Shown: positions 7,285 to 46,896 of the stretch, in pieces
Numbering within the stretch: the first letter of the stretch is position 1
How the letters are laid out: each line of letters opens with the position of its first letter
Assembly (NCBI GenBank): GCA_050250855.1
Contig: JBFWNW010000002.1
Location: 69,925-133,924, forward strand
DNA: 64,000 nt
Direction of reading: 5' to 3'
DNA from: Candidatus Babeliales bacterium
Lineage (GTDB): Bacteria; Babelota; Babeliae; Babelales; JACPOV01
Program-made: the position numbers and the translations under genes
The notes under the pieces: generated by a model
Told to the model about the DNA's origin: nothing
Database searches by the model: none
The model's input: only the letters and a program-made list of their open reading frames with translations

Positions 7285-7291
7285 AAACTAA

Positions 7292-7327
7292 AAAGGGCCG
7301 GCTAAACACCGGCCCTTTATTCTTTTT
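7292..7327. terminator. Bidirectional hairpin terminator between convergent genes
   Basis: aaagggccgg / ctaaaca / ccggcccttt, with an A-run before and a T-run after. Confidence 0.8.
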
Positions 7328-7340
7328 CTAAAAAAACTAA

Positions 7341-9673: not shown

Positions 9674-10519
9674 TTATGGATTTCCATATTTTTTGAATAT
9701 TTTTTCAACAAAAATACGGTTTGATTCTTTAGAAAGCTTTACTGCATGGTTATAATCAGCATTAAGTTTAAACGTTTTTTCTTCATTGCAACGATCAAAA
9801 CCATAGCCTTCCCATAATTTTTCCCAGTTTTCTTTATACTCCAAACAACTGAGAATGGTAGGCAATGCTCCTTCAAGCCAAGCATCATTTTTTCTATAGA
9901 TTTCGCACAGTTCAATAAAATCATCTTTATATACCGCTGGTATATATGCTATATCTGCATATGCATGACAGATGCAATTATCTCCCCAGTTAGCTTTTAA
10001 CATTTCCTTATAGCAATCAGGCGTTTCTTTATAAGCATTCTTTAGTGCTTCATAACCAAATTTTGTTGGCCACCAACAATTAGTAATTGCTCTAATCCCT
10101 TTATTTAAATTAACAGCTTCTCCAATATCATATCTATGCCAATTAACGAATACATGATTAGCGGCCCATATTTTTGATAGATCAAAACGATTATAACGCC
10201 AAACATTCATTAAGCAATCATCGTGACAGAACAAATACCCTTTATAATCAGGAAATCTTTGCATAGCATCACTAAGAGCATAATAACTAAATGCCCCTCG
10301 CTCCTCTTCAATCGCATAAACGTCAGGACACTCACTTGGTCCATAAAAAATTACTTTAGAAAAATAAGGCTCATAGATCTTTTTTAAAAATGAGATTGCT
10401 TCATAATGAGCAAAATTAAAATTTATAATTAAAAGAACATCATCAAACATTTTTCCATAATTAGAAAAAATAATAGTAAAGACAAAAAAATAAACAATTC
10501 TTTTACTAAAAAAAACCAT
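9674..10519 (-). CDS. Hypothetical protein, last gene of the glycan locus; possible glycosyltransferase
   Basis: 281-aa ORF with a hydrophobic N-terminus (IVYFFVFTIIF). I recognised no family motif. Function is guessed from context only. Confidence 0.35.
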   Translation of the reverse strand: MVFFSKRIVYFFVFTIIFSNYGKMFDDVLLIINFNFAHYEAISFLKKIYEPYFSKVIFYGPSECPDVYAIEEERGAFSYYALSDAMQRFPDYKGYLFCHDDCLMNVWRYNRFDLSKIWAANHVFVNWHRYDIGEAVNLNKGIRAITNCWWPTKFGYEALKNAYKETPDCYKEMLKANWGDNCICHAYADIAYIPAVYKDDFIELCEIYRKNDAWLEGALPTILSCLEYKENWEKLWEGYGFDRCNEEKTFKLNADYNHAVKLSKESNRIFVEKIFKKYGNP

Positions 10520-10531
10520 AGGTTTCCCTTT

Positions 10532-11611
10532 CTAGTGTGTTATAGTTTTATAATAGCTATAAGCCTTTTCAAGCATAGCTATTTGCTCCGGTGTAAAAAT
10601 TAACTCTCTTTTGTAATCAGGAATAGTTAATGATAACACGGTATCAATAAAATATTCTGTAGAAAATAGAAATGCCATTTCGCTCTTCAAGTAAGCTTTA
10701 ATATTTTTAATATATTGATCATATTCTTCTTTTTTCATCTTTTTCATAAATTTATATAATTCTCGATTATTTTTAAATTTACGGCGATCAATAAAGCAAC
10801 TTGGCCATACACAATCGGTAATATTTTCTGCACCCCAATAGACTGGTACACAGCCAGAAACTAAACAATCAAAAATTTTTTCTGTAATATAGCCAGGAAC
10901 ATTATTACAATTTTCATAACAAATGCAAAATTTATAATTTTTTAATACTGGGCGTTTATGAGGAACCTTGCCTTTAAATGTCTTAAATTGCGATGCAGGC
11001 CAACCACCTTCACCATAAAAATCAAATTTTTTTCTCCTTTTACTTTTTTTCTCAAAAAAATTAATTACTTCTCTTCGTGCAGAATATAACTGGCCAACTC
11101 CTCCTGACATCTTATAGCTTACTATCATAGTGCACAATTTCTTTTGATCAAAAGAAGGAATATCTTTTTCTATTTCTAATGATGGTTGAGGATAAAAAAA
11201 CTTTAAAGCTTTATCGTTATCAATCATTGCATCAGATAAATATAAAATTTTTTTACAATAAGGCCGATAATCAAAACTATACATTCCTGGCGCAATCAGA
11301 GGCGGTTCAAAAACTCCAAAAATAGATTTTTCTTGCAATGTTTTCGGCAAAAGATCGACATTAGGAGTATTTAAAAAAAAAGCCCCTATACAATTATCAT
11401 CATTATAATCACTAAGCTCTAAACAGCTTGGATGATAACCAAGATTTTTTATGGCTTGTGCAAAATCGTAAAACATCTTCCATCCATTATCGCGACAAGG
11501 GTAATTAGGAATATTTAATATTTCATCAGACAAATTAAAATAAAATACTTTTTCTGTTCCAACTACAGTAAAAAAAGCTAAAAAAACTAATACTCTTATC
11601 TTATTATTCAT
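10532..11611 (-). CDS. GT10-family alpha-1,3/4-fucosyltransferase (copy A1)
   Basis: GT10 signature FCICYENCNNVPGYITEKIFDCLVSGCVPVYWG; compare H. pylori FutA FENS..GYVTEKI...IPIYWG. Signal-like N-terminus. Confidence 0.85.
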   Translation of the reverse strand: MNNKIRVLVFLAFFTVVGTEKVFYFNLSDEILNIPNYPCRDNGWKMFYDFAQAIKNLGYHPSCLELSDYNDDNCIGAFFLNTPNVDLLPKTLQEKSIFGVFEPPLIAPGMYSFDYRPYCKKILYLSDAMIDNDKALKFFYPQPSLEIEKDIPSFDQKKLCTMIVSYKMSGGVGQLYSARREVINFFEKKSKRRKKFDFYGEGGWPASQFKTFKGKVPHKRPVLKNYKFCICYENCNNVPGYITEKIFDCLVSGCVPVYWGAENITDCVWPSCFIDRRKFKNNRELYKFMKKMKKEEYDQYIKNIKAYLKSEMAFLFSTEYFIDTVLSLTIPDYKRELIFTPEQIAMLEKAYSYYKTITH

Positions 11612-11618
11612 ATATTTT

Positions 11619-12467
11619 CTACGCCTTCAAGTAACTATGTTGTAAATGGGGATTAAAAAAAAGAGCCGCGAGCGCAACATTTGATACGCCATGGATAAAA
11701 TGATCACACTTAGAAAGCAACTGTGTTTCAATCAAAACCTGTTCTCCCATTAATGCTCTATTTTTTACTTGTTGGTTCCATATATGTAATCCTGTATCAT
11801 CAAGAGATCGATAGGAGTCATAATAGATCACCTTACCAGGTAATTTCTTTTTTAATTCATCAAGAACTCGTTGATCATCAGTCGCTACCAAAAATTGTGC
11901 TCCCTTATGCTTAGAAGCCTCTTCTATATACTGCTTAAGAGGAATTCGCGGTGCTTCATTATGGTCTGTTCTGCGTACATGAATACCGACCGTCTTTTTA
12001 CCTTGCATATTTTTGTGATAAAAATCATCAATTTTTGCACTAATTTGAGGTTTTATATGTATATATTTTTCTATATATGAGTTAATAAAAGATCTATATT
12101 CATAAGAAAAATTTTGTTCATATCCAATATATCCGCAAGGTATAGCTTGACCATCTGGCGTAACATAATCTTCATGTATTACATCACCAGAATTATACTG
12201 AGCTTCTGAGACGGGATAAAAATAATATTCCCAAATATTATCACTTCCATTATAAGTTCCTGATACTTTATAATAAGCAGGAGCACGGTTCCAATGTACC
12301 ACAAGATCTAGCCCTTTTTCTTCACACCATATAAGATGACTGACTACACCAAATATATTAGAAAAAAGACCTGCCCAGCGACCACCTAAAACATAATGAT
12401 CTTTTGAAAAAGAGAAAAAACTAAAAAATATAATCGACATACAAAGAAAACAAGAATAATTTTTCAT
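11619..12467 (-). CDS. GT23-like (FUT8/NodZ-type) fucosyltransferase (copy B1)
   Basis: GIHVRRTDH ... FLVATDDQRVLDELKKKLP ... GLHIWN ... closely parallels FUT8 IGVHVRRTDK ... VYLATDDPSLLKEAKTKYP ... GLHNRY. Signal-like N-terminus. Confidence 0.75.
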   Translation of the reverse strand: MKNYSCFLCMSIIFFSFFSFSKDHYVLGGRWAGLFSNIFGVVSHLIWCEEKGLDLVVHWNRAPAYYKVSGTYNGSDNIWEYYFYPVSEAQYNSGDVIHEDYVTPDGQAIPCGYIGYEQNFSYEYRSFINSYIEKYIHIKPQISAKIDDFYHKNMQGKKTVGIHVRRTDHNEAPRIPLKQYIEEASKHKGAQFLVATDDQRVLDELKKKLPGKVIYYDSYRSLDDTGLHIWNQQVKNRALMGEQVLIETQLLSKCDHFIHGVSNVALAALFFNPHLQHSYLKA

Positions 12468-12502
12468 TAACTATTTCCTCAACAAAAATCTGTTTTATAG
12501 CT

Positions 12503-13387
12503 CTAAGAAATAACCAAGCCTACCTTAAAATCTTCCGTCATTTTTAAATATATGCTTTTTAATAATGGATTAAAAAACAATGCACCCAAGGAAACATTTG
12601 ATACAGAGTGAATAAAACAATCGCACAAAGAAAGTAGCTTTGATTCTATAAGCACTTGCTCTCCCATAAGAGCTTTATTATCTACTTGTGGGTTCCATAT
12701 ATGCAATCCTTTATTATTTGAAGAACGATACGCATCATAATAAATAACGTTTCCCTTTAGTTTTTGTTTTAAAATATCTAACACTGATTGATCATCGGTC
12801 GCTACTAAAAACTGCACATCTTTAAAAGAATTTGCCACCTGAATATAAGCATTAAGAGGAATGCGTGGCGATTCATAATGATCTGTTCTTCTAACGTGAA
12901 TTCCTATTGTTGCTTTACCTTCCATATTTTTTTTATAAAAATCATTCATTTTTTCAAGAATAGAAGGCTTTATGTGAATATATCTTTGAATATAGGAGTT
13001 AATAAATGATCTATATTCATAAGAAAGATTTTTTTCATATAAATAATATAAACATTCAATAGCTTCTCCATCTGGTGGCGTATAATCTGCGTGCAATTCA
13101 TCACCAAGTTGATAGTGAGCTTCTGAAACAGGATAAAAATAATATTCCCAAATATTATCACTGCCATTATAACCATCACTCATCTTGTAAAAAGAAGGCT
13201 CATCTTTCCAATAAACTACTAAGTCCATTCCCTGTTTTTCACACCAAATGAGATGATTAATGACCCCAAGGATATTTGAAAATAACCCTGTCTGCCGACC
13301 TGTCAAAACATAATAATTATTACTTAAACAAGAAAATGATTGTCCTAAGAAAAAAACTCCTATAATAATTTTTACAAAAAACCGCAT
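12503..13387 (-). CDS. GT23-like (FUT8/NodZ-type) fucosyltransferase (copy B2)
   Basis: Paralogue of 11619..12467: GIHVRRTDHYESPRIPL, FLVATDDQSVLDILKQKL. Confidence 0.75.
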   Translation of the reverse strand: MRFFVKIIIGVFFLGQSFSCLSNNYYVLTGRQTGLFSNILGVINHLIWCEKQGMDLVVYWKDEPSFYKMSDGYNGSDNIWEYYFYPVSEAHYQLGDELHADYTPPDGEAIECLYYLYEKNLSYEYRSFINSYIQRYIHIKPSILEKMNDFYKKNMEGKATIGIHVRRTDHYESPRIPLNAYIQVANSFKDVQFLVATDDQSVLDILKQKLKGNVIYYDAYRSSNNKGLHIWNPQVDNKALMGEQVLIESKLLSLCDCFIHSVSNVSLGALFFNPLLKSIYLKMTEDFKVGLVIS

Positions 13388-13390
13388 AAC

Positions 13391-14461
13391 TTATCCTATT
13401 TTTTTAAACAAAAAAGAACAATAATCCTTTGCCTTTTCAAGGTTAGTTATTTGTTCCGGGTTAAAAATAAGCTCTTTTTTATAATCAGGAACTGTTAATG
13501 ACAAAACTAAATCAATAAAATATTCCATAGAAAATAAAAACGCCATTTCACTCTTTAAATATGCCTTGATATTTTCAATATATTGATCGTATTCCTCTTT
13601 TTTCATATGCTTAATGAAATTGTACAACTCTTGATTATCCTTAAATTTACGCCGATCAATAAAGCAATTTGGCCATACATAATCGGTAATATTTTCTGCA
13701 CCCCAATAAATAGGGACACATCCTGCAACTAAACAATCAAAAATTTTTTCTGTAACATATCCTGGCGCATTGTTGCTATTTTCGTAACATATACAAAACT
13801 TGTAATTTTTGAGCACTGGTCTTTTGTGAGAAACCTTCCCTTTATAGGTTTTAAATGACGCTGGCCATTCAATACCATATACATCAAGCTCTTGGACTCT
13901 TTGAGGATCTGAATCAAAAAAATTAACTACACTAAGACGTTGGGTAAATAATTCTCCAGGCCTTTCTATAAATTTATAGGTTGCAATAAGTGCACATAGT
14001 TTTTTTTCATGAAAATCTGGAATATCCTCTTCAATCTCCAGTGAAGGTTGAGGATAAAAAAATTTAAATCTCGTATTGTTATCAATCTTATTATCCAAGA
14101 GATATAAAGTTCTAAAAGGATAGAAGGTTGTTGTATAATAACCAGGAGCAATAATAGGCGGCTCCCATAATGAGAATAAACATTTTTCAGGAATTAGATT
14201 CGGTGAAATATAATTGGGCAAATTAATAAAAAAAGCACCTGCATAATCTTTTGATCCCAGATAATCAAATTCTTTTACCTCATAACCAAGTTTTTTTGCC
14301 GCCTGAGCTAATTCATAAAAAACTCTATAAGCAGCATCTCTTTGCGGATAAGAAGTATCAGTAAAAGTAACTTCTGGAAGATTTATATAAAAAATCCTTT
14401 GATCAGCTTCACTCAAAAAAACCTGTAATAAAAAAGTAATTCCTAATAAATAGCGCACCAT
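13391..14461 (-). CDS. GT10-family alpha-1,3/4-fucosyltransferase (copy A2)
   Basis: FCICYENSNNAPGYVTEKIFDCLVAGCVPIYWG. The C-terminal half is nearly identical to copy A1. Confidence 0.85.
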   Translation of the reverse strand: MVRYLLGITFLLQVFLSEADQRIFYINLPEVTFTDTSYPQRDAAYRVFYELAQAAKKLGYEVKEFDYLGSKDYAGAFFINLPNYISPNLIPEKCLFSLWEPPIIAPGYYTTTFYPFRTLYLLDNKIDNNTRFKFFYPQPSLEIEEDIPDFHEKKLCALIATYKFIERPGELFTQRLSVVNFFDSDPQRVQELDVYGIEWPASFKTYKGKVSHKRPVLKNYKFCICYENSNNAPGYVTEKIFDCLVAGCVPIYWGAENITDYVWPNCFIDRRKFKDNQELYNFIKHMKKEEYDQYIENIKAYLKSEMAFLFSMEYFIDLVLSLTVPDYKKELIFNPEQITNLEKAKDYCSFLFKKIG

Positions 14462-15933
14462 TATACTATGCCAAAATTATACAGCTTTCTCTTTTGATAT
14501 AGCTGCTGATCATACCTAAAATATTGTGCATTACGCACATATAAAGGATCGTTATGATCAGAACCATCTAAAGGGTAATTATTCTTAATAAGCTGCTCAT
14601 AGAATATTTTTTCTTTACCGAGTGAACGGGCTACTTCAGCCAGTTCATTATCGCAGTAATATGATTTATATTCTGGATAATAAATATATCCAAACCGTTT
14701 ATAATACATTCTGCCTATAATAGGATAAATAACATAGTCTTTAGGATCTCTGCCATCTGAAAAATTAAGGATACCGTCAAAATCAGGAAAATGTTTCAAC
14801 ATTTGACGCACTATAACTACATCATAGTTTTTTACGATAGGTTCAAGATCATCACTTACTACTAAAATAACGTCAAACTTATCAATAAAATCATCGATAT
14901 CTTTATTGTATGCTTCAATTTTTGAACTACTATTGCCAAAGCGATAAGAAAGATTTGGCAAACTATCAAGAATACTTATTACCTTGGCATTATTCATAGT
15001 TGGATCATCTTGATCGCACGTAATTAAAAAATGGTAGGGAATGGTTCCTGATAACATCTCATAGTACTTTTTTAAATATTGGAAAAATTGTACCGGACGA
15101 TAACGCGTTGGAATTTTTATAAGTAGACGAACTAACTGCTCTCTTGACTGCTTGCAAGCATGAAATGCTATAGTATCTATATCTTTTTTATATGCACTAT
15201 AGGGCCTTGGAGGTAAACAATCAACATAAGTACCTTCTTCAATACGGCCCACATCATAGCGCCAATTAATTTTATCTATTCTCGTGCGTGGTGAAACTAC
15301 ATCAGTTTTGCCCAATCGTATACAGCGACTCTCATAACCATCCCACGCAAGTACCGTTTTATATAACATTTTTTGATCAGTGGTCCATCCAATTGCAGTA
15401 TCATGCCATTCTTTAATCTTTTGAGGGATATCCTCTTTTGTGAAAATCTTAAAAATTTCTGCAAAAATTTTACCTTTACCTGCAACATAGCACATAGGAA
15501 TTTCTTTGAATTGTCGTTCAAACTCTTCGCTATCTCGATAAACAACAAAAACATCATCAGCTAAATCTTTAATACGCTCGGTAAAATAATCTCGAGAAAG
15601 AGGTAATAAGTCTATATCAGAAACTATGCAACAATCATTGGGAAATAACAAGGGCAAAAATAAGCGAATACATTGAGCATATAATGACGTTGGTATGCCT
15701 GGAATAGGCTCAAAGCGAATAATGTCACCTAATGATTCATCTATTTCTACACTTTTATCTGCAATTAAAGCTAACGTTGGCCTTATACCAACTACTTCTT
15801 TCCACATCTTGGCAACCAGCGGCCAGTATTCTATATAATTGGGATTTGCATCAGTAGACAAAATAACACGATCAAGCGTTAAAGCTTCTGCTTTAAAAAT
15901 ACATAAAAAAAGTACTACGTATATTCTTCTCAT
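14461..15933 (-). CDS. Hypothetical two-domain protein, possible glycosyltransferase
   Basis: 490-aa ORF with signal-like N-terminus MRRIYVVLFLCIFKAEA and 1-nt overlap with the downstream gene. No family motif recognised with confidence. Confidence 0.4.
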   Translation of the reverse strand: MRRIYVVLFLCIFKAEALTLDRVILSTDANPNYIEYWPLVAKMWKEVVGIRPTLALIADKSVEIDESLGDIIRFEPIPGIPTSLYAQCIRLFLPLLFPNDCCIVSDIDLLPLSRDYFTERIKDLADDVFVVYRDSEEFERQFKEIPMCYVAGKGKIFAEIFKIFTKEDIPQKIKEWHDTAIGWTTDQKMLYKTVLAWDGYESRCIRLGKTDVVSPRTRIDKINWRYDVGRIEEGTYVDCLPPRPYSAYKKDIDTIAFHACKQSREQLVRLLIKIPTRYRPVQFFQYLKKYYEMLSGTIPYHFLITCDQDDPTMNNAKVISILDSLPNLSYRFGNSSSKIEAYNKDIDDFIDKFDVILVVSDDLEPIVKNYDVVIVRQMLKHFPDFDGILNFSDGRDPKDYVIYPIIGRMYYKRFGYIYYPEYKSYYCDNELAEVARSLGKEKIFYEQLIKNNYPLDGSDHNDPLYVRNAQYFRYDQQLYQKRKLYNFGIV

Positions 15934-15943
15934 AGCTATCTCT

Positions 15944-17305
15944 TTATTCAGTACATGAAATTAAACAAATATCTTCTTTGTCTTTGGATAAATCATAAGA
16001 TTGTATAGTTGAAAGTGATAATACAGTATTTCTTTTTACTATCATGCCACATGAATCTGCAGGAGACATAAATTTTACTTGTGAAATAGCTAAACCATCC
16101 CATAGATATGAAGCATTTTGCTGAGAAGAAAAATCTTTTTTGGATAGTATACAGAAATTTGATTTTGTATCATGCATAGCTTCTGCACAAATTTCTCTAT
16201 TTTTTAATGTTTCTAAAGCTTTAACGTCTGTAATAACACAATAATAATCATAATTAACATCTTTTAACCAAAAATCAGGTGATGCATCCTGCGATGGGTT
16301 AATAACAAACGTATAATGAGAGTAAAGAGAAGCTAATTGTTCATAATCATTTTTATGAGATAAGTCTCCACAGCAAATAACGTTTAGATTTTCATTTTTA
16401 TATAAACCTTTAAATGCGCTTAATGTCTCTGCAAGTGTATTTGGATCATTAGCATAGATCAAAAAAGGAATAGATTTTTTTTGATACGATTCTCGATAAG
16501 GTCTTTGTTCAAGGGGTTTGTATGCCGACCGGCTGCTAATAACCTTTCTTAAAAATTGTTGCTTTTCCCAGTTAGTTGCACCATCTGCAATTGGATTATC
16601 TTCATTGTAGCGATATAAAATGTTTGGGTTAAATTTGTAATGATTAATTGCCATCTCTATAATTGGATACACCCAAGAAACGTCCTGTGCCATAGAGAAA
16701 AACATACCTTCATGTAGTAAATCTTTAAGAGCAACTTCTCTAAAAAGCCATGCATACATGCAACGAGGAGGACTAAAATACCAATTTTGACGAATAAGAT
16801 TACGCTGCTTTACCATAGGAGGAATATCACCAGACCATGGTGCATAACCGTTTCTTGTTCCCCAAAAATTACCGTAGGTAAACCAAATAGATTCATCACT
16901 AAACTGTTCATTGATTGATGATAAAACATCTTTTGTAGTAAAGGTATCATCGCCATCCAAAATTACTGCAATTTCATGAGGTTTGCAGAATTTATAAAAG
17001 GCATACACAATATTTCTGAGCGCAAGACCACGAATTTCATTTTTAATAAGAGTAACGCGATGATGTATATCATACTGATCAATAAAAGCCTTTGCATTTG
17101 CATAAGTATTATCAGGAGAACAATCATCTATATAAACAACGCGAAATTTTTCATAATCCTGCATAAGAACTGATGCTAAATTTTCATTGCATACATCTTG
17201 ATTTTTATAAGAAGGAATAATAACAACAATATCATGCTGATATGCTGCTGCTATAGTATATACTCCCCCTACAAAAATTAATCCAAAAAATAGTTTTAAA
17301 TTCAT
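15944..17305 (-). CDS. GT2-family glycosyltransferase with an extra C-terminal domain
   Basis: VVIIPSYKNQD...VVYIDDCSPDNT and DGDD (DXD) motifs. Preferred start MNLKLFF at 17305 forms an ATGA overlap with the upstream stop. An alternative start lies at 17335. Confidence 0.8.
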   Translation of the reverse strand: MNLKLFFGLIFVGGVYTIAAAYQHDIVVIIPSYKNQDVCNENLASVLMQDYEKFRVVYIDDCSPDNTYANAKAFIDQYDIHHRVTLIKNEIRGLALRNIVYAFYKFCKPHEIAVILDGDDTFTTKDVLSSINEQFSDESIWFTYGNFWGTRNGYAPWSGDIPPMVKQRNLIRQNWYFSPPRCMYAWLFREVALKDLLHEGMFFSMAQDVSWVYPIIEMAINHYKFNPNILYRYNEDNPIADGATNWEKQQFLRKVISSRSAYKPLEQRPYRESYQKKSIPFLIYANDPNTLAETLSAFKGLYKNENLNVICCGDLSHKNDYEQLASLYSHYTFVINPSQDASPDFWLKDVNYDYYCVITDVKALETLKNREICAEAMHDTKSNFCILSKKDFSSQQNASYLWDGLAISQVKFMSPADSCGMIVKRNTVLSLSTIQSYDLSKDKEDICLISCTE

Positions 17306-18243: not shown

Positions 18244-18249
18244 TACTCT

Positions 18250-18840: not shown

Positions 18841-18853
18841 ACTATTCCCTCTT

Positions 18854-19774: not shown

Positions 19775-19787
19775 ATTCAGCACTCCT

Positions 19788-20636: not shown

Positions 20637-20638
20637 AA

Positions 20639-22859: not shown

Positions 22860-22874
22860 ATCCTATTTCCTTTT

Positions 22875-23903
22875 TTATGTATAATGATGGCTATTTTTTT
22901 CCCGTAATTGATGCAAAATATGTTTTACTTTATCTGTCTGATCTCGCTTCGCTATTAAAAGAACATCATCTGTTTCTACAACACATAGATCTTCAACGCC
23001 TATAAGTGCTACGAGCTTTTTTGGCACCTGAACAATATTATTAGCTGCGTGCAATTCAATAACTTCTGTTTGCTGTTGGCTATGCTTTTTGTGCAAAGAA
23101 AGAAATATTTCTAAGTTGCCAACATCTGACCATGTAAAAGAGCAGGGCTGTACATACACGGCATTACTTTTTTCTAATACCGCATAATCAATAGAAATAT
23201 TTTCGGCATCTTTGTAATCTGCTTTATGTTCAAAAAAATCACATACCACCTTATATAGCTGTTGGGCATGACGATTGTATTCTTCTATAAAAACAGAACT
23301 TTTGGCACAAAAAATACCTATATTCCATAACATGGTATCCATGGTACTATATACATCCGCCAATTGCGCTGAAGGTTTTTCATGAAAACGAGAAACTTTT
23401 ACAACATCATTTTTTTGCGCTGCCATTTCTATGTAGCCATAGTTTGTTGCGGGAAAATCAGGACGAATTCCTAACAATGTTATGGCATCATGAGCTTGCG
23501 AAAATTCTAACGCATTATTTAAATGTTTGGCAAATTGGTCATCTTCTACAATAAAAGCATCAGCAGGTAAAAAAGCTATAATTGCTGAAGGGTCTTTTTG
23601 TTGAATATAAAGCGTAGCCAAAAGTAATGCTGGCGCTGTATTGCGGCCAATTGGTTCAGACAAAATGCCGCCTATAGAATCTCCCAAAAGACTTTTAATA
23701 GAATCAACCTGCTGCTCAGTTGTCATAATAAAAATATTATGTTTTTCAACAATTAAAGAAGCACGCATAACAGTACGCTCAAGCAAAGAATTTTGATCAT
23801 CAAGAGAGAGCAGCTGCTTTGGCTTTTTCTCTCTACTCAAAGGCCATAAACGCTCACCTTTGCCTCCAGCTAAAATAACAATATAGCGTGATGTTATATC
23901 CAT
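22875..23903 (-). CDS. manC: Mannose-1-phosphate guanylyltransferase (nucleotidyltransferase domain only)
   Basis: VILAGGKGERLWPLSREKKPKQLL N-terminal NTP-transferase signature. At 342 aa there is no C-terminal isomerase/cupin domain. Confidence 0.8.
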   Translation of the reverse strand: MDITSRYIVILAGGKGERLWPLSREKKPKQLLSLDDQNSLLERTVMRASLIVEKHNIFIMTTEQQVDSIKSLLGDSIGGILSEPIGRNTAPALLLATLYIQQKDPSAIIAFLPADAFIVEDDQFAKHLNNALEFSQAHDAITLLGIRPDFPATNYGYIEMAAQKNDVVKVSRFHEKPSAQLADVYSTMDTMLWNIGIFCAKSSVFIEEYNRHAQQLYKVVCDFFEHKADYKDAENISIDYAVLEKSNAVYVQPCSFTWSDVGNLEIFLSLHKKHSQQQTEVIELHAANNIVQVPKKLVALIGVEDLCVVETDDVLLIAKRDQTDKVKHILHQLREKNSHHYT

Positions 23904-23909
23904 AACTAT

Positions 23910-24623
23910 TTATTTTTTTCTTCGTTCAAAAAACAAACGACAAAATGTTTTAGCTGCTTCTTTCATAATTGCTACTGAAAGCTTTGAATCGCCATGAATT
24001 CTATTACGTGCATGAATCGGAATTTCTGTTATACGCAAACCATCCTCTTTAAAGCGATACAGTGATTCAATGCAGAAAGAAAATCCTTTTGAACTTACTT
24101 TTTTATAGACATGAGGCTTTAATTTTTGTACAGAATATAAACGGTAAGCACCGGTACAATCGTACGGCATACCAAGGCCTCGTTTAATTAAATTTCGCCA
24201 AAAGTAAGTAAATGGTAAACGAATTCTTCCCCAACCGCTCATGCCACCGCCATGAATATAGCGTGAACCAATAACGACATCATGAACATCTCTTTTTTCA
24301 AAAAGAGCAGGAATATAACGCGGATCGTGCGTAAGATCTGCATCCATCGTAATTAAAAATTTATAATTATGTTTTTGCGCATATTCAAATGCCTGCACGT
24401 GAGCCGTTCCTAAACCAAGCTTTGCAGGGCGATGCATAACATGCACAGAAGGATCTTTTTTACTTAAATCATCAAGAACTTTTCCGGTGCCATCTGGAGA
24501 ATTATCATCACAAAAAAGAATATCAACATCTTCTTTGTGCTTCTTTATTTCTTCATACAAAATTAAAACATTGTCACGTTCATTATAGGTGGGAACAAAA
24601 ACTAAAACTTCATTTTTTTGCAT
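23910..24623 (-). CDS. Polyprenyl-phosphate sugar synthase, Dpm1/Ppm1-like GT2
   Basis: VFVPTYNERDN...DILFCDDNSPDGTG...HRPAKLGLGTA...ITMDADLTHDP is the canonical dolichol/polyprenol-phosphate mannose synthase pattern. Confidence 0.8.
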   Translation of the reverse strand: MQKNEVLVFVPTYNERDNVLILYEEIKKHKEDVDILFCDDNSPDGTGKVLDDLSKKDPSVHVMHRPAKLGLGTAHVQAFEYAQKHNYKFLITMDADLTHDPRYIPALFEKRDVHDVVIGSRYIHGGGMSGWGRIRLPFTYFWRNLIKRGLGMPYDCTGAYRLYSVQKLKPHVYKKVSSKGFSFCIESLYRFKEDGLRITEIPIHARNRIHGDSKLSVAIMKEAAKTFCRLFFERRKK

Positions 24624-24632
24624 AGTATAAAC

Positions 24633-25985
24633 CTAGTGAATCAATTGGTACGTAATAATAGTATTTTCTTTCTTTGCACAACGATATGCAACAACCATAC
24701 CAAAAGCAGAAAAAAGGATAAAGAAGTATTCAAACATCATCCGATAGCGCGCACATCCGTCATGTCCTGTTATAAAGGAAAAATAAAAAATTGAAATAAT
24801 GACAAAGCTAACTATAAAATAATATTTTTTATGCCATAGAGCATAAAGGCCGATCATGATAAAAAATAGTTGCAATACCATCCAGAGTAATTGTAAAAAT
24901 GCAATAATATGTATTAAACGCGATGAAGTGCCATCAACTACATAATGGTAAAAACGATTATATAAAGAGCCTGACTTTGAAAAAAATGATGTTTCCGTAC
25001 CTTTTAACGATGGATTTACTAAAAATTTAAGTTGATTCGTATACAAAGCACCTACCGTCTTTATCATGTTATGCAACCAAATACGTACAACTAATACTGG
25101 TTTTTCATAAAAATAAGAATGCATCAATGCTTTTGGTTTATTCCAACGCGTATGATCATTATGATGTTTACCATCCATTAACGTACCGACCTGAACTAAT
25201 CCTTCTGCCCATGAGATACCTTGGTCATGTGCTATAACTTTTGCCAAAAAATAAAAATAAATATTTTCATGCATTAAAGGGGCAATTGTCATAGAACCAA
25301 ATTGATACTTATTGTGTAGCATATAACCAGCAACAGGAATATAAAAACAAAACAAGCACAGTAAAATGGCATTCAATACTTTTTGTCTCTGTAAATAAGC
25401 ATGTAGCCCGACAAAAAAGATTACTATGAAAATATAAAAAAGCGCTACCGGTTTTACCGCAACTGAACAACCATACAATAAGCCTGCTAGGGCTAAAGAA
25501 GATAAGCTAGACGTTTTAAAATACGTACATAAACGCTCAAGAGAAGCTATCAAGAAAAATGCTAAAAGCACTTCTGTGAGCATAAATTGACTGTATATTA
25601 AAAAACCAAGATTAAAAGATCCTAACAAAACAGTTACTTGTGCAACATGTTCATCAAAAAGCATGTATGCTATGCGATAGAGCAACAATAACGCTAAAAG
25701 GCTTAGCAAGATTTGTGCAATAATGACCCATGTGTGATGAAAACCAAATAACTTATAAATACTACCTAGAAAAAATGGGTACCCTAATGTTTGAACGGGA
25801 ATAATGGATCCTCGTTGAGGATCCATTAATTGATTATCTGTTGCAAAATAGTTGCCTATTGCCACATATCCTGATGAATCAAGATCACAATGAGCTTCAT
25901 AGGCAGGATTTATCCTATACAAACTGTAGGATAATAAACAAAAAATAACTATCGAACAGAGTAAAACTATTTTTGTACTATTCAT
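24633..25985 (-). CDS. GT-C fold membrane glycosyltransferase (PMT/ArnT-like)
   Basis: 450 aa with many predicted TM helices. CDLDSSGY acidic motif in the first extracytoplasmic loop. 4-nt overlap with the upstream gene. Confidence 0.65.
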   Translation of the reverse strand: MNSTKIVLLCSIVIFCLLSYSLYRINPAYEAHCDLDSSGYVAIGNYFATDNQLMDPQRGSIIPVQTLGYPFFLGSIYKLFGFHHTWVIIAQILLSLLALLLLYRIAYMLFDEHVAQVTVLLGSFNLGFLIYSQFMLTEVLLAFFLIASLERLCTYFKTSSLSSLALAGLLYGCSVAVKPVALFYIFIVIFFVGLHAYLQRQKVLNAILLCLFCFYIPVAGYMLHNKYQFGSMTIAPLMHENIYFYFLAKVIAHDQGISWAEGLVQVGTLMDGKHHNDHTRWNKPKALMHSYFYEKPVLVVRIWLHNMIKTVGALYTNQLKFLVNPSLKGTETSFFSKSGSLYNRFYHYVVDGTSSRLIHIIAFLQLLWMVLQLFFIMIGLYALWHKKYYFIVSFVIISIFYFSFITGHDGCARYRMMFEYFFILFSAFGMVVAYRCAKKENTIITYQLIH

Positions 25986-28159
25986 TGATTGATTTCTTGA
26001 TTACCTCCTCCTTGGCAGGCAAGCTTATCAACAATCAGCGTTATTTCTGCTACGCGCATTAAACGTTCTATGCTAATTGGCGCTTTATAATCATTGTGCA
26101 TAGCGCCAAAAAAATCCTTAAGCAACTGCTCATGACCTTTATCAGGAACCATTACTTTTTCATTAAATGATGATGGTAATCCAAAACCTTGCAAGACTTT
26201 ATAATCGTCCATCAAAATTGATTTAGAATCATAAAAGACTTCCATACGCTCTTTTCCTAGATCGCCATGACCTAATGACGTATACAATAAAGAACAAATT
26301 GAACCATCTGCAAAGCTAAATTGAACGGAAAAATTATCCGTTGGAAAAAGATCATCATGTTTTGGTTTTAGTGATTCTACTGATAATGCTACTGGATAGG
26401 AATCTGTTAAATGAACAAAAAGATCAAAAATATGACACGCCTCACCTATAATTCTGCCAGCACCAACTTCAGTTTGAATCCAATGATTTTTAGGGATAAA
26501 ACCAGCATTCATTCGATAATGTACAACAAGTGGTGATGAACGCTTTGCTACTTCTTTTTTTATTTTCTGCACAAAAGGAGCAAAGGAACGATTATAATCA
26601 ACACAGAATGGCAATGAAGAATTTTTCTCAAAAAACGCTTTCATTTCGTGTAGTTGATCAAAATCAGTAACCATAGGTTTTTCTAAGAATACCGCTTTGC
26701 CATGTTGCAATGCAGCAAGAGCTTGCTTGCTATGGTATTTGTGAGGAGATGCAATTAATACTGCATCAACTAAATCTTCATCAAAAAGTTTGCTATCATC
26801 AGATAATGCTTTTGCTGCACCATATGTTTTTGAAACAGTAATTGAATTTGCCATATTGGCATCAACAACGGCATTAATTTTTACATTTTTGATACGAGAA
26901 ATTATAGGCATAAGCTTCACTTTTGCAAAGCCACCAGCACCAACAACCCCGACACGTAAACGATCTTTAAATGCTGGAACAAATCTTATTTCTTCTAATG
27001 GTACGGATTCTTTTTGAACCGCCTCTTCTTGATGAGGCGCAAGCTCATGTTCTTCAGTACGATAAGAAAGAACTACCGCCAAAACGTCTTGCGATTTTAA
27101 AGAATCATATGCCTTTTCTGCTTGATCAAGAGAGGCTTCTTGTGAAATTAAACTATCAACATCAAGCTTTTTACGTTCAATAAGATCAACAATTGATTCC
27201 ATATTGCGATTTTCTGTCCAACGCACGTAGGCATAAGGATAATCTAAACCATTTTGCTCATACGATGCATCGTAACGGCCAGGACCATATGAACATGAAA
27301 TAAGAAAATCAATCTCTTTTTGATAAAATGGTGAACGATCAAAGGTAAGCGGAACATCACCAACTAAGACAACACGCCCTTTTTTGCGCGTAATTTCCAT
27401 AGATTGTTGAATTATTCCTTTATGCGATGATCCTGCGGTAATAATAGTACAGTCAACGCCCTGATGAGCAGTTACAAATTCTATTTCTTTTTTTATATCA
27501 ACTTCTGCAGGATTCAACACGGTATCAGCACCTAGTTTAAGCGCTAAATCAAGGCGATTTTTTAATAAATCTAATGCAATAACTTTGCAACCAGAAATCT
27601 TTGCCAATTGCACCGTAAATTGCCCAAGTAGACCTAAACCAAGAACGCACACGGTATCACCCAGTTTAACATCGGCACGACGTAAACCTTGTAATGCAAT
27701 TGCACCTAACGTTGTAGTACTTGCTTGGCGCAAATATTCTTCGCTGCTTACTTTAGTAACAAGATTTTCTGGCACAATGACCATTTCAGCATGATGAGCA
27801 AAACCTGCGCCAGCACAAGCAACAAAATCTCCTGCTCTGTATTTTTTTATATTTTTGCCTACAGCAATAACTTTTCCAGAACATGAGTATCCTAGTGCTT
27901 GCAAATTGCCGGCAAGTTTTTCGCGAATAAGTGCTTTTGTTCCTTCTATCCCATTTTTTGCAATAGAAAGAAGAACTTTAGGCAACTTTAACGGAATATT
28001 GCTAAAAACACTTTGTTGAGCATTTGCAATAGTAGAACCTTCTGTTCCTGGACTAATACAAGAGTAATAAACTTCAACAAGAACACTATTATCATCAAGA
28101 ATAGGTTCGCATACATCTTTTACTGCTATAATACCTTTTTCTAGAAACAGTTGTCTCAT
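25982..28159 (-). CDS. Bi-domain oxidoreductase: zinc-type alcohol dehydrogenase (MDR) N-terminal half plus Gfo/Idh/MocA C-terminal half
   Basis: N-terminal half carries GLGLLG Rossmann and MDR features. C-terminal half has VGVVGAGGFAK Rossmann, then EKP and other Gfo/Idh/MocA features. 725 aa. Confidence 0.8.
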   Translation of the reverse strand: MRQLFLEKGIIAVKDVCEPILDDNSVLVEVYYSCISPGTEGSTIANAQQSVFSNIPLKLPKVLLSIAKNGIEGTKALIREKLAGNLQALGYSCSGKVIAVGKNIKKYRAGDFVACAGAGFAHHAEMVIVPENLVTKVSSEEYLRQASTTTLGAIALQGLRRADVKLGDTVCVLGLGLLGQFTVQLAKISGCKVIALDLLKNRLDLALKLGADTVLNPAEVDIKKEIEFVTAHQGVDCTIITAGSSHKGIIQQSMEITRKKGRVVLVGDVPLTFDRSPFYQKEIDFLISCSYGPGRYDASYEQNGLDYPYAYVRWTENRNMESIVDLIERKKLDVDSLISQEASLDQAEKAYDSLKSQDVLAVVLSYRTEEHELAPHQEEAVQKESVPLEEIRFVPAFKDRLRVGVVGAGGFAKVKLMPIISRIKNVKINAVVDANMANSITVSKTYGAAKALSDDSKLFDEDLVDAVLIASPHKYHSKQALAALQHGKAVFLEKPMVTDFDQLHEMKAFFEKNSSLPFCVDYNRSFAPFVQKIKKEVAKRSSPLVVHYRMNAGFIPKNHWIQTEVGAGRIIGEACHIFDLFVHLTDSYPVALSVESLKPKHDDLFPTDNFSVQFSFADGSICSLLYTSLGHGDLGKERMEVFYDSKSILMDDYKVLQGFGLPSSFNEKVMVPDKGHEQLLKDFFGAMHNDYKAPISIERLMRVAEITLIVDKLACQGGGNQEINQ

Positions 28160-29485
28160 TTAAATTTCTCCTTGCATATGATCTATAATTGAGCGAATTG
28201 CTGCATTACTTGCAGGCCAAAATAGTTTTTCTTGTGTATCTTGTTCCTTGTGAGGCTCATAAAAAATACCACAAAAATCCAAAATCTTTTTATGCTGTAT
28301 ATCAAGTGCATCTATTTTTTTAAATGCTGTATGTTTTACAAGACATAAGATAATATCAGCCTGTTCGATGCCTTTTTGTAATGAAACACCATCGTGACCA
28401 AAAATTTCTACAATATTCTCATTGTGAATGTATGGATCACAAATCAGTAAATTCATATCAGTAAAAATTGAAAGTTTTTTTGCTATTTCTAATGCTGGTG
28501 ATTCGCGTAAATCATCAATATCTGGCTTATAGGTGAGGCCTAAAATAAGTACGTTAGCTACTTTTTGATGCGCTTGACGCCAACGCTCAATACAGTAACG
28601 TGTTGCTTGAACAACCTGTCTTGGCTTTGCACTATTAACATCACGAGCCATTTTTAAAAGTTTTGTTTCTTCAGGAAATGTTTGCACTAAAAACCAAGGA
28701 TCAACTGCTATGCAATGCCCACCAACACCGCATGAAGGATTTAAAATATTAACGCGTGGATGTTTATTTGCTAATTCAATAACTTCAAAAGGATTTAAAC
28801 CTATTTTATACGCCATTGCAGCAACTTGGTTTGCAAAGGCAATTTCAACATCACGAGAGCTATTTTCAACTAGCTTTACCATTTCTGCTGTTGTTGCATT
28901 AGTAAGATATAATGCTCCCTTTACAAATGCTTTATAAAATAGTTTTGCTTGCTCAACTGATTCTTGGTTTATACCGCCAATAATGCGAGCATTGTGTACA
29001 AGCTCATGAAAAATCTTGCCTGGCAACACGCGCTCTGGACAATGTGCAACAAAAAAGTCTACGCCTGCCTTTAAGGGGGTAAGCATTTCTAATCGCTCAC
29101 CAAGCTTATCAGTAGCTCGGACCGGCACAGTAGATTCTAAAATAACAACGTCACCCTTTTTGAGTACCGTAGCTATTGAAGCTGCAGCATGCCAAATATA
29201 AGAAAGGTCTGCTTCTTTATTTTCTAAAAATGGCGTTGGTACTGCTATAACAAAAAAGTCAGCCGCTTCTATAGCTTGTATAGCACGGAAATTACCGGAA
29301 GAAAGAGCTTCTCGCAATTTCTCCGAAAGCTCTGGCTCTTCTATGACAGGGTCAAAATTATTAATACGTTCAACTTTTTTTTGATCTATGTCAAAACCAA
29401 CAACATCAAAATCTGCATTTGCTGCAACAATAGCTGTTGGAAGACCTATATAACCAAGACCAACTACACATACCTTTTTTTTCAT
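28160..29485 (-). CDS. wecC: UDP-N-acetyl-D-mannosamine dehydrogenase / nucleotide-sugar dehydrogenase
   Basis: KVCVVGLGYIGLPTA N-terminal Rossmann motif and catalytic GGHC motif (PSCGVGGHCIAVDP). 441 aa. Confidence 0.85.
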   Translation of the reverse strand: MKKKVCVVGLGYIGLPTAIVAANADFDVVGFDIDQKKVERINNFDPVIEEPELSEKLREALSSGNFRAIQAIEAADFFVIAVPTPFLENKEADLSYIWHAAASIATVLKKGDVVILESTVPVRATDKLGERLEMLTPLKAGVDFFVAHCPERVLPGKIFHELVHNARIIGGINQESVEQAKLFYKAFVKGALYLTNATTAEMVKLVENSSRDVEIAFANQVAAMAYKIGLNPFEVIELANKHPRVNILNPSCGVGGHCIAVDPWFLVQTFPEETKLLKMARDVNSAKPRQVVQATRYCIERWRQAHQKVANVLILGLTYKPDIDDLRESPALEIAKKLSIFTDMNLLICDPYIHNENIVEIFGHDGVSLQKGIEQADIILCLVKHTAFKKIDALDIQHKKILDFCGIFYEPHKEQDTQEKLFWPASNAAIRSIIDHMQGEI

Positions 29486-29500
29486 AGGAAAAGTTCCTCT

Positions 29501-30685
29501 CTATTTTACTACTAATGTAGGCTTAATTTTTTTGTGATCAAGAACATTAGAATTATCGTGCATAAAAAAATTCTTAATACCTTGTACCATTTTTTCTGCT
29601 GCATAACCATCACCAAAGATAGTACGTTTTTTTGGCTCACTTAACAAGATGGTATCAGCTATTTGTTGTAACATATCAGTAATATTCTTTTCATCCGTCC
29701 CTACTAAATGTGCAACACCTTCCCACACTGCCTCCATGCGCTCTGTTTCGTTGCGCAAAATTAAGGTAGGCTTTCCTAAACTTGCTGCCTCTTCGCAGAT
29801 GCCGCCGGAATCTGATGCTACAATATCGGCCTGTAAAAGAATGTATACTAAATCTTTATACGCTACTGGCTTACACATAAAAATATTTGAAGTGCCATCA
29901 AGACCAACCGACTGAATAGCTTGCAATACGTTTGGATTTGGATGATAAGGATAAATAAAAAATGTATCAGGATTTTTTTGAGCATACGTTTTGATGGCAG
30001 TTAGTATTGATTTAATACCGCCATTAAAGGATTCTCTACGATGCGCTGTTACTAAAATAATTTTTTTACCGTGTTTTTTATTCTCTTCTATAACTGCTTT
30101 AAGAGTAGCATCAATAAGAACTACTTCTTGTTTAATTTTTTCTTCCATAATACGCAAGGCATCAACAACGGTATTTCCTGTGCATAACACTCTTTGTCTT
30201 TCAATATTTTCTGATAAAAGATTTGCTGCTGCCGTTGCTGTTGGTGCAAAATGAAGCTGTGCGACCATAGAAATAAAACGTCGATTCATTTCCTCAGGAA
30301 AAGGTAAATCTATTGTTGGGGTACGCAATCCTGCTTCAACGTGAGCAAGGGGGATTCTTAGGTAAAATGCAGCAAGAGCTGCTGTCATTGCCGTGGTTGT
30401 ATCTCCTTGCACAATAACAAGAGAGGGCTCAACTGACACAAATATTTCTTTAATTTTTTCCAAAACTTTTTGCGTAATATGGAAAAGGTCTTGTCCTGGC
30501 ACCATACAATGCAGTTCAAAATCTGGCTTAATTGAAAAAAGATCAAAAGCTTCTTGCAATAAATTGTTATGTTGATTTGTTGAACATATTAAAACAGGCA
30601 ACTTTGCTCGTTTAAGAGCATAGTAAAGAGGTATCATTTTAATACCTTCTGGCCTCGTTCCAATAACAAGAATAATTGGTTTCAT
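29501..30685 (-). CDS. wecB: UDP-N-acetylglucosamine 2-epimerase (non-hydrolysing)
   Basis: ILVIGTRPEGIKMIPL, VQGDTTT, HVEAGLRT and SDSGGICEEA motifs. Confidence 0.9.
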   Translation of the reverse strand: MKPIILVIGTRPEGIKMIPLYYALKRAKLPVLICSTNQHNNLLQEAFDLFSIKPDFELHCMVPGQDLFHITQKVLEKIKEIFVSVEPSLVIVQGDTTTAMTAALAAFYLRIPLAHVEAGLRTPTIDLPFPEEMNRRFISMVAQLHFAPTATAAANLLSENIERQRVLCTGNTVVDALRIMEEKIKQEVVLIDATLKAVIEENKKHGKKIILVTAHRRESFNGGIKSILTAIKTYAQKNPDTFFIYPYHPNPNVLQAIQSVGLDGTSNIFMCKPVAYKDLVYILLQADIVASDSGGICEEAASLGKPTLILRNETERMEAVWEGVAHLVGTDEKNITDMLQQIADTILLSEPKKRTIFGDGYAAEKMVQGIKNFFMHDNSNVLDHKKIKPTLVVK

Positions 30686-46733: not shown

Positions 46734-46896
46734 TGAAAAGTCTCCATGTATAAGTAGTTGTGAAAAAACTAATTTCGTTTCAACTATAGCGATATTTGCC
46801 ACAAAATCAAAAGCCCCCCTAGACCAAAAAACTATACAAATACATAAATTTTGGCATATTCTTTCAATAATACATTTCAACACCAAAAGGATTCCT

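Follow-up and report, generated by a model that had tools for sequence, protein, structure and literature searches.

A Babeliales glycan locus whose GDP-fucose enzymes and glycosyltransferases carry predicted Sec-type signal peptides

How might a bacterium build a fucose-rich glycan with a locus in which no gene for glycan initiation, flipping, polymerisation or export is seen? This question is raised by a tight block of glycan genes in a 64,000-nucleotide stretch of DNA (hereafter the window) from a Candidatus Babeliales bacterium (assembly GCA_050250855.1, contig JBFWNW010000002.1). The Babeliales (Dependentiae/TM6) live as obligate parasites inside the cells of protists. Most lipopolysaccharide (LPS) biosynthesis genes are reported missing from Babeliales/TM6 genomes (PMC4776705), and none were found in Chromulinavorax destructans, which replicates in direct contact with the host cytoplasm (PMC6561590). 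In such LPS-less bacteria, the lack of an O-antigen ligase and of related machinery is expected and the glycan must sit on a non-LPS acceptor. The answer proposed here is that the block is a strain-variable surface-glycan locus of LPS-less Babeliales, whose fucose-rich product would be assembled outside the cytoplasm. On the sequence evidence, this is judged an even call.

Predicted export of the GDP-fucose enzymes and transferases

The open reading frame (ORF) listing of the window gives exactly 19 intact ORFs between 30685 and 9674, all read from the minus strand. With the starts used here, they are separated by 0-35 nt or overlap by 1-4 nt, except for Gmd and Fcl, whose overlap is 44 nt if Fcl begins at ATG 21670 and 101 nt for its longest ORF. 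An earlier first-pass annotation, made from the letters alone, had delimited the same 19-gene block, correctly save for a second GT-C gene, divergently transcribed, that it did not count; it also overlooked the signal peptides and the Dpm1/GT-C priming discussed below. The locus consists of two parts: upstream genes for signal-peptide-free or membrane proteins, versus Gmd, Fcl and 11 downstream genes for proteins with predicted signal peptides.

Upstream part:
29501-30685, minus strand: WecB, non-hydrolysing UDP-GlcNAc 2-epimerase (TIGR00236, Epimerase_2), no signal peptide
28160-29485, minus strand: WecC-like UDP-ManNAc (NDP-sugar) dehydrogenase (NF008286, Pfam UDPG_MGDP_dh), no signal peptide
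25982-28159, minus strand: bi-domain oxidoreductase (BiOx), Zn-ADH-like plus GFO/IDH/MocA (Pfam ADH_zinc_N and GFO_IDH_MocA), no signal peptide
24633-25985, minus strand: GT-C glycosyltransferase, PMT_2/ArnT-like, with about eight transmembrane (TM) segments (Pfam and TM scan)
23910-24623, minus strand: Dpm1/Ppm1-type polyprenyl-phosphate mannose synthase, a soluble GT2 of 237 aa (PF00535, 8e-28), no signal peptide
22875-23903, minus strand: ManC, GMP domain only (Pfam NTP_transferase and ManC beta-helix)
30817-32298, plus strand: second GT-C (PMT-like), divergently transcribed (PF02366, 1.1e-4; 8 TM segments)

Gmd, Fcl and downstream part:
21627-22859, minus strand: Gmd with a signal-peptide-like N-terminal extension of 26-29 aa (TIGR01472)
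20639-21670, minus strand: Fcl (GDP-L-fucose synthase) with a signal-peptide-like extension of 24 aa (NF047922)
19788-20636, minus strand: GT32-type DXD glycosyltransferase, predicted signal peptide MKKLLSITFLFSSLVCA, cleavage before QE (PF04488, Gly_transf_sug, 9e-17)
18854-19774, minus strand: weak GT2-like protein, predicted signal peptide (PF13704, 4e-5, under the cut-off)
18250-18840, minus strand: predicted exported protein of 196 aa with a LELGSGDYST motif and a signal-peptide N-terminus
17302-18243, minus strand: GT8-like retaining GT-A of 313 aa, predicted signal peptide MIKRKTLYVWLALLGGMAFLQA (AlphaFold2 model, Foldseek)
15944-17305, minus strand: GT2 of 463 aa, predicted signal peptide and an extra C-terminal region (PF00535, 1.9e-15)
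14461-15933, minus strand: two-module predicted exported protein of 490 aa, N-terminus MRRIYVVLFLCIFKAEA (modules 1-262 and 263-490)
13391-14461, minus strand: GT10 fucosyltransferase a, predicted signal peptide MVRYLLGITFLLQVFLSEA, cleavage before DQ (PF00852)
12503-13387, minus strand: GT23-like protein a (FUT8/NodZ superfamily), predicted signal peptide (NodZ 22.0 bits, cut-off 28.3)
11619-12467, minus strand: GT23-like protein b, predicted signal peptide (NodZ 29.0 vs 28.3; FUT8_N_cat 28.3 vs 27.6)
10532-11611, minus strand: GT10 fucosyltransferase b, predicted signal peptide (PF00852, 57.9 bits), 59% identical to GT10 a
9674-10519, minus strand: STELLO-like putative glycosyltransferase with an N-terminal hydrophobic segment (PF03385, 34.1 vs 27.8)

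Gmd, Fcl and the 11 downstream products share one N-terminal pattern (13/13): one to three K/R come first, then 8-14 uncharged hydrophobic residues, a stretch too short for a TM helix. This charge distribution predicts an N-in/C-out orientation, the signature of a Sec signal peptide, for the 13 products. By contrast, none of the five soluble upstream enzymes (WecB, WecC, BiOx, the Dpm1-type synthase and ManC) has a signal peptide. Their catalytic fold starts directly (the N-terminus of WecB is MKPIILVIGTRPEG) and, because their ORFs are maximal, no hidden upstream start is available; that of ManC leaves no room for a signal peptide. Set against the 44% of coding sequences with a predicted signal peptide in the Dependentiae genome of C. 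destructans (PMC6561590), 13 out of 13 has a p of about 2e-5. A first heuristic flagged Rossmann N-termini, for example that of WecC, and was replaced by a test confined to the sequence upstream of the canonical start. Lipoprotein signals were rejected by eye, the cysteines having no preceding lipobox. N-out/C-in signal anchors were also rejected, since K/R precede every segment and the segments are too short to span the membrane.

To our knowledge, the enzymes of the GDP-L-fucose pathway are cytosolic in every described case, and the hydrophobic extensions of 24-29 aa on Gmd and Fcl would depart from this placement. The genes of this pathway, manC, gmd and fcl, are all present at family-level scores. 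Gmd lies above the equivalog cut-off (TIGR01472, 611 bits vs 415), with a profile match that starts at residue 30, and Fcl slightly below its own (NF047922, 470.7 vs 500), with a match from residue 28. Gmd has two in-frame ATG starts, 22859 and 22781, each preceded by a Shine-Dalgarno (SD)-like motif; two isoforms or a dual localisation may result. The long start of Fcl (ATG 21670) has AGGAG 7 nt upstream, whereas its short start has no SD. As a negative control only, since the set is noisy, the 150 best Gmd cluster representatives drawn from 1.8 billion proteins were inspected and none carries a hydrophobic N-terminal extension (0/150).

The same N-termini recur in homologues. The heuristic detects them in 93% of GT10 homologues (the 120 best), in 85% of those of the two-module protein (n = 96) and in 96% of those of the GT8-like protein (n = 120). 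All but one of the named homologues of these three proteins belong to Babeliales/Dependentiae/TM6 or to Chlamydiae, and every named GT10 homologue is bacterial (Babeliales, Dependentiae or Chlamydiae). Dependentiae and Chlamydiae are two unrelated phyla of protist endosymbionts.

Related loci (numbered with the prefix L) were recovered by a metagenome scan seeded with GT32. Many of them have the order (WecB/WecC)-oxidoreductase-ManC-Gmd-Fcl, followed by GT2/GT32 arrays. Hydrophobic N-terminal extensions are found on ManC in 4 of 6 related loci, on 7 of 13 related Gmd genes by the heuristic, with an eighth (L107) by eye, and on 5 of 10 related Fcl genes. None is found on the five BiOx orthologues (L089, L090, L091, L101 and L128) or on the three HIT proteins. 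The extensions of ManC, Gmd, Fcl and other nucleotide-sugar enzymes of these loci are 17-30 residues long, and several end with an AXA-like motif right before the Rossmann strand (...ISMQA/KKALIIG and ...MIVCA/KKALIIG, the slash marking the boundary). An NDP-sugar dehydrogenase, short-chain dehydrogenase/reductase (SDR) epimerases, a PseB/FnlA-like dehydratase and an RmlD-like reductase are also extended, their profiles starting at residues 18-31. These additional enzymes are encoded at L087 17736-20007 and L101 14543-16516, with extensions of about 20 aa. Two loci, L090 and L101, each have two Gmd genes, one with an extension and one without.

ManC is signal-peptide-free in both loci with an adjacent Dpm1 (the window and L004), where the Dpm1 step needs cytoplasmic GDP-mannose, and carries a predicted signal peptide in all four BiOx-ManC loci without Dpm1 (L089, L090, L091 and L101). 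The locus L004, from the Babeliales metagenome-assembled genome (MAG) GCA_040879965.1, lies in the matching chromosomal slot, beside RNase G, OmpA, a glycoside hydrolase of family 1 (GH1) and a DEAD helicase. It shares GT-C, Dpm1, ManC, Gmd, Fcl and GT32 with the window and differs in its downstream set, made of two ankyrin genes with signal peptides (5040-7504), a GT2, a GT10 and a second GT32. The same slot with a different set of glycosyltransferases resembles surface-glycan loci.

Enzymes of the two parts

Most gene calls of the first-pass annotation are supported by Pfam and NCBIfam profile searches. WecB exceeds the equivalog cut-off (TIGR00236, 358 bits vs 210) and matches Pfam Epimerase_2 at 3e-93. 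The WecC-like protein is just under the NF008286 cut-off (441.5 vs 459), passes as a member of the NDP-sugDHase subfamily and matches the N-terminal, central and C-terminal UDPG_MGDP_dh domains of Pfam. Orthologues of BiOx follow WecC in L089 and L091 and WecB in L090, and they precede ManC in L089, L090, L091 and L101.

The Dpm1-type gene sits between the PMT_2-type GT-C and manC. The nearest solved structure to its product is the Pyrococcus DPMS (5mlz, 2e-20), far above ArnC and GtrB. Among the matches listed, it is about 40% identical to unannotated homologues from Actinobacteria, Myxococcota and Chloroflexi, and those of the first two groups are probably of the Ppm1 type. The GT-C at 24633-25985 matches PF13231 (1.2e-10) and PF02366 (1.2e-7) and has no match in a PDB sequence search. 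The second GT-C scores marginally under the PMT cut-off (22.3 bits vs 22.7). The divergent HIT/GT-C pair is syntenic in L086 and L087, and this second GT-C is a conserved partner that belongs to the locus.

Among the downstream proteins, both GT10 assignments stand well above the PF00852 cut-off (58.4 bits for a and 57.9 for b, vs 23.9). The alpha-1,3-fucosyltransferase motif F/YxxxxxENSxxxxYxTEK is present, and the segment YKFCICYENSNNAPGYVTEK, with YKFCICYENS..GYVTEK, aligns to the Helicobacter pylori FucT. This enzyme is the nearest solved GT10 (9e-13, against 1e-5 for human FUT9), so that the term "eukaryote-type" first applied to these fucosyltransferases was overstated, the named homologues being bacterial as well; a scan of viral contigs with GT10 found no close viral relative. 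The two GT23-like proteins are paralogues (69% identical) and share GIHVRRTDH, which aligns with GVHVRRTDK of FUT8 (FUT8 E value 0.005; there is also a weak GT11 match). The HxRRxD donor-binding motif is common to the GT11/GT23/GT65/GT68 superfamily and does not fix the linkage. Their initial assignment to GT23 is marginal by score (29.0 for b and 22.0 for a, vs 28.3), with a motif of HxRRxD type in both. Sequence places them, marginally, in the FUT8/NodZ superfamily, and the alpha-1,6 assignment is not secure. The alpha-1,6 fucosylation first proposed rests on these borderline matches, and the mimicry of eukaryotic N-glycan cores, which leans on the same call, finds no support. A fucosylated product, as foreseen in the same annotation, is supported by the predicted GDP-fucose pathway together with the GT10 and GT23-like transferases.

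The other predicted transferases are more diverse. What had been called GT-A-like (17302-18243) is predicted to have a GT8-like GT-A fold: its AlphaFold2 model has a pLDDT of 96.4 and Foldseek retrieves XXYLT1, WbbM, LgtC and UGGT at about 1e-7, while Pfam GT8 is matched by 9 of 63 relatives. The protein first described as having two domains without an assigned function does have two fused modules, both putatively of glycosyltransferase type, the N-module being modelled as a GT8/GT6-like GT-A. This N-module (1-262) is modelled with a pLDDT above 90 and retrieves LARGE1, glycogenin and GT6 in Foldseek, the best match being the bifunctional LARGE1; the C-module (263-490) forms a separate family and has a pLDDT below 50. 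Each module also exists by itself or in fusions with GT2, methyltransferase, sulfotransferase or GT11. In L167 (6652-12572, from a Simkaniaceae MAG), a 1135-aa GT2-GT2-GT10 fusion, a fusion of this same N-module with a methyltransferase, and a Methyltransf_21 gene stand side by side, adjoining V-type ATPase genes. Modules of the transferases of the window thus recur, by sequence, in Chlamydiae.

The GT2 at 15944-17305 begins with MNLKLFFGLIFVGG. The last gene of the block (9674-10519), to which no function had been given, can now be called STELLO-like (PF03385, 34.1 vs 27.8). The "methyltransferase-like" label of the 196-aa protein (18250-18840) is a guess from the LELGSGDYST motif by eye, and the protein has no match in Pfam, NCBIfam or PDB. 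Homologues of it (52-62% identity) occur in tandem arrays beside GT32 in L115 (1996-3060) and L118 (2452-5208). The 490-, 313- and 196-aa proteins have no match in PDB sequence searches.

The relatives of the GT32 protein could point to another destination for the predicted exported proteins. Its nearest solved structures are host-targeting glycosyltransferases, namely Legionella SetA (2e-9), YeGT and the TcdA family, and Och1 is also among its PDB relatives; it matches PF12919 at 4e-11, and the SetA-type match spans the N-terminal sugar-binding region only. The transferases and Gmd/Fcl could be effectors that leave the cell by Sec and a type II secretin system and, once outside, add fucose or other sugars to proteins or glycans of the host or deplete its GDP-mannose. 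This is in essence the host-glycan remodelling that the first-pass annotation had suggested. Secretion of many effectors has been proposed for Dependentiae (PMC6561590). Signal peptides are also predicted on eukaryote-like proteins (two WD40 proteins of the window, and the ankyrin genes inside the L004 locus), components of a type II secretion system (T2SS) and two secretins are encoded at 51457-60033, and the glycosyltransferase families are held in common with Chlamydiae. Nevertheless, the genes are packed, operon-like, with those for a Dpm1-type synthase and GT-C enzymes, which are able to act only on extracytoplasmic acceptors of the bacterium itself. A dozen strain-variable transferase modules in a fixed slot have the look of a surface-glycan locus, no host-targeting, receptor or translocation domain was seen, and the nearest GT10 is the H. 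pylori FucT, which builds the Lewis antigens of that bacterium. Secreted effectors are therefore considered unlikely, and action on host glycans is a possible but less likely reading.

Routes of assembly

Profile searches agree with the first-pass annotation that genes for initiation, flipping, polymerisation and export are not seen in the window. The tested ORFs of the 64 kb, each 100 aa or longer, include no WecA/WbaP, Wzx, Wzy, Wzz, Wza, Wzm/Wzt or WaaL, and none of them matches PF00953 or PF02397, which would indicate an initiating phosphoglycosyltransferase (PGT). The sole ABC pair of the window is MlaE/MlaF, and only the two GT-C genes have at least 8 TM-like segments. No small flippase of the GtrA, MATE or SMR type was found in the window either, nor any small multi-TM GtrA-like ORF. 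Judged from these sequences, the locus does not appear to be of the Wzx/Wzy- or ABC-dependent type, since a PGT and export genes are wanting in the window and all 11 downstream products carry predicted Sec-type N-termini.

The glycan could still be assembled conventionally, in the cytoplasm and on an undecaprenyl (Und)-linked intermediate, if the N-terminal segments were membrane tethers or start artefacts and if the genes for initiation, flipping and export were located elsewhere. The contig is at least 275 kb long, of which 64 kb were examined, and the WecB/WecC product is a cytoplasmic donor that requires a cytoplasmic glycosyltransferase. Furthermore, the annotated starts of Gmd and GT10 in L004 leave out the hydrophobic segment, the short start of Gmd in the window is SD-preceded, and the GDP-fucose enzymes of L086 and L087 are signal-peptide-free. 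However, the K/R before a run of 8-14 residues predict export with an N-in/C-out orientation and not a cytoplasm-facing tether, and such segments are retained in 85-96% of the hundreds of homologues. Soluble enzymes that have no use for a tether (Gmd, Fcl, ManC and SDRs) bear them too, often with AXA at the mature N-terminus. Lastly, LPS genes are reported missing in Babeliales, and the 9.6 kb on one side of the locus and the 33 kb on the other contain neither a PGT nor Wzx, Wzy or an ABC exporter. Conventional assembly is thus regarded as improbable.

The predicted Sec-type signal peptides of Gmd, Fcl and the 11 downstream proteins now make the "unconventional route", which the earlier annotation had offered as one option, the preferred reading. 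In the assembly outside the cytoplasm that is proposed here, WecB and WecC would make UDP-ManNAcA, and ManC would make GDP-mannose, in the cytoplasm. The Dpm1-type synthase would form polyprenyl-phosphate-mannose inside the cell, and GT-C would move the mannose from this carrier to a periplasmic or surface acceptor, probably either Ser/Thr of a protein, as PMT/Ppm1 systems use, or a lipid. The exported Leloir transferases (two GT10, two GT23-like, GT32, two or three GT8-like modules, GT2s and the STELLO-like protein) would then extend this primer, either within the periplasm or at the surface that faces the host. Nucleotide sugars would arrive from the host cytosol or via an exporter, and exported Gmd and Fcl would make GDP-fucose in place from GDP-mannose. 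As the chain would grow on its final acceptor outside the membrane, PGT, Wzx, Wzy, ABC exporter and ligase would not be needed.

This route demands that the donors (GDP-mannose, UDP-sugars, NADPH and possibly S-adenosylmethionine) reach the periplasm. Their entry seems plausible, since the parasite is surrounded by host cytosol and its outer membrane would already have to let nucleotides through. There is a precedent in Chlamydia, whose GlgA is a Leloir glycosyltransferase that uses host UDP-glucose in the inclusion lumen (PMC4829429). A bolder form of the proposal is a Golgi-like, exported and host-fed Leloir glycosylation pathway in obligate intracellular, LPS-less bacteria (the Babeliales, with parallel gene families in Chlamydiae), which would be categorically new for bacteria. 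About a dozen exported Leloir modules would use GTP, NADPH and nucleotide sugars from the host cytosol, and exported ManC, Gmd, Fcl, NDP-sugar dehydrogenases and SDR dehydratases would work in the periplasm or in a host-facing space. This pathway is thought possible, at somewhat less than an even chance.

Several known systems resemble the locus in part. Systems that combine a polyprenyl-phosphate-sugar synthase with a GT-C (actinobacterial Ppm1/Pmt, and the Gtr, Arn and three-component systems; PMC11127046) share with it a Dpm1/Ppm1-type GT2 next to ManC and one or two PMT_2-type GT-C, the donor being made in the cytoplasm and transferred outside, as proposed for the locus. Unlike them, the window has no GtrA/MATE flippase. 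Furthermore, these systems stop at a single added sugar or depend outside the membrane on lipid-linked donors alone, whereas the GT-C of the locus would just prime a chain, to be lengthened by about a dozen exported modules of Leloir type.

The eukaryotic ER/Golgi, with Dpm1 and PMT and with luminal GT10, GT23, GT32 and GT8, is alike in topology and enzyme families; this is an analogy and not a demonstrated homology of the system. Some eukaryotic enzymes of nucleotide-sugar interconversion are also luminal, such as UXS1. The signals of the locus look like cleavable Sec peptides instead of type II anchors, no transporter of nucleotide sugars could be assigned to it, and its GT10 are nearer to bacterial than to animal enzymes.

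The H. pylori Lewis fucosylation system (FutA/FutB) has the GT10 alpha-1,3-fucosyltransferase motif and ManC/Gmd/Fcl in common with the locus, but its fucosyltransferases are cytoplasmic and signal-peptide-free, and act on Und-PP-linked O-antigen that is flipped and then ligated to LPS. In Bacteroidetes, the lfg protein O-glycosylation system puts a fucose-containing glycan on many periplasmic and outer-membrane proteins; it is built on a cytoplasmic lipid carrier and needs Wzx, none of which is seen in the window. The glycogen enzymes of Chlamydia trachomatis (GlgA and others; PMC4829429) are, as proposed here, Leloir-type enzymes of an obligate intracellular bacterium that act outside the cytoplasm on a host nucleotide sugar. 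They differ in being secreted by a type III system without signal peptides, in making a storage polymer and in having no joint GT-C/Dpm1 locus. Taken on its sequence, the locus may work like a Ppm1/PMT priming system followed by a Golgi-style luminal elongation, for which the chances are rated as balanced.

A number of observations weigh against assembly outside the cytoplasm. The use of UDP-ManNAcA has no explanation in it, because the Dpm1-type synthase is the only cytoplasmic glycosyltransferase of the locus. In L086 (8130-9913) and L087 (5834-8849), ManC, Gmd and Fcl are all signal-peptide-free though the downstream GT10, GT32 and GT2 bear signals, an arrangement that would need a nucleotide-sugar exporter or a supply from the host. 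In L004, Gmd has a predicted signal peptide and Fcl has none, and the logic of the compartments is thus not uniform. The SD-preceded start of Gmd at 22781 excludes the signal peptide. In the window, no flippase for polyprenyl-phosphate-mannose was found and no route was seen by which the periplasm would receive nucleotide sugars, NADPH or GTP, and all such absences hold for the 64 kb. Lastly, the signal-peptide calls come from a heuristic based on hydrophobicity and charge, completed by inspection of the N-termini, and the entire case is one of sequence analysis. As regards the flippase, we know of none identified for polyprenyl-phosphate-mannose in Actinobacteria or for Dol-P-Man in eukaryotes either.

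Genomic setting and significance

The flanks of the locus are those of an ordinary bacterial chromosome, with genes for DEAD helicase, RNase G, UvrC, ClpB, TIM, MlaEF, MoxR, T2SS-C, two secretins, PilM, enolase and AspRS. The lowest GC content of the window lies at the GT10/GT23-like end (0.30-0.31 at 10001-14000, vs 0.35-0.38 in the flanks). This low GC of the downstream half could betray a horizontally acquired glycan island that is now a decaying or non-functional remnant. However, all 19 ORFs are intact and tightly spaced, the catalytic motifs are kept, identical segments of the window occur in two independent sequencing runs (Logan) and orthologous loci are widespread. Decay is thus very improbable indeed.

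Promoter-like sites are fewer than expected by chance in the window (69 vs 91.5 in shuffled sequences), and terminator-like sites fall inside genes. A hairpin with a perfect 12-bp stem (TAATGGATCCTC GTT GAGGATCCATTA) is located at 25802-25828, within the GT-C coding region. Two long ORFs, at 45663-46937 on the minus strand and 46720-47595 on the plus strand, overlap by about 220 nt; neither has a Pfam match and one of the pair may be spurious.

Other genes of the window also have signal-peptide-like N-termini. Beyond RNase G, two HAD-like hydrolases and a GH1 glycosidase (1807-2577, 5090-5848 and 5848-7284) all carry one, and L004 has three GH1 genes (14299-18606) at the position that matches these HAD/GH1 genes. 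They could be involved in glycan trimming or in the recycling of sugar phosphates or nucleotides outside the cytoplasm. Small paralogous proteins with such N-termini (MFL..YKNFAL..) and no Pfam match are encoded at 3734-4120 and 4252-4890. On the other side of the locus, the tandem WD40-repeat paralogues at 33681-35117 and 35447-36886 share the signal-peptide-like N-terminus MKNHFKKLLLFGLLGAMPTIFA and, on this basis, are likely to be eukaryote-like proteins that are exported. At 51457-60033 lies a single cluster with a T2SS-C-like gene, genes for two secretins and PilM, and others for small membrane proteins; the two secretins agree with the two gspD copies reported for TM6 genomes (PMC4776705).

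In the usual view, Leloir transferases and nucleotide-sugar synthesis are cytoplasmic and only lipid-linked donors act outside the membrane; the cytoplasmic location of nucleotide-sugar donors is stated explicitly (PMC11127046). In the literature, the coverage of which was incomplete, nothing was found on exported glycosyltransferases or GDP-fucose enzymes of Dependentiae or Chlamydiae. If the signal peptides are non-functional, the locus would be an ordinary fucose-rich surface-glycan cluster with its assembly genes elsewhere. If they are confirmed, Sec-targeted fucosyltransferases, GT8, GT2, GT32 and GDP-fucose enzymes would break the rule. Such enzymes would then be a source of soluble, secretion-competent fucosyltransferases for glycoengineering. 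For the Dependentiae, this would give a reason for the presence of signal peptides on nearly half of the proteome, namely a metabolism moved out to the metabolites of the host. It would also hint at what covers the surface of the LPS-less Babeliales and would provide a bacterial analogue of the Golgi topology.

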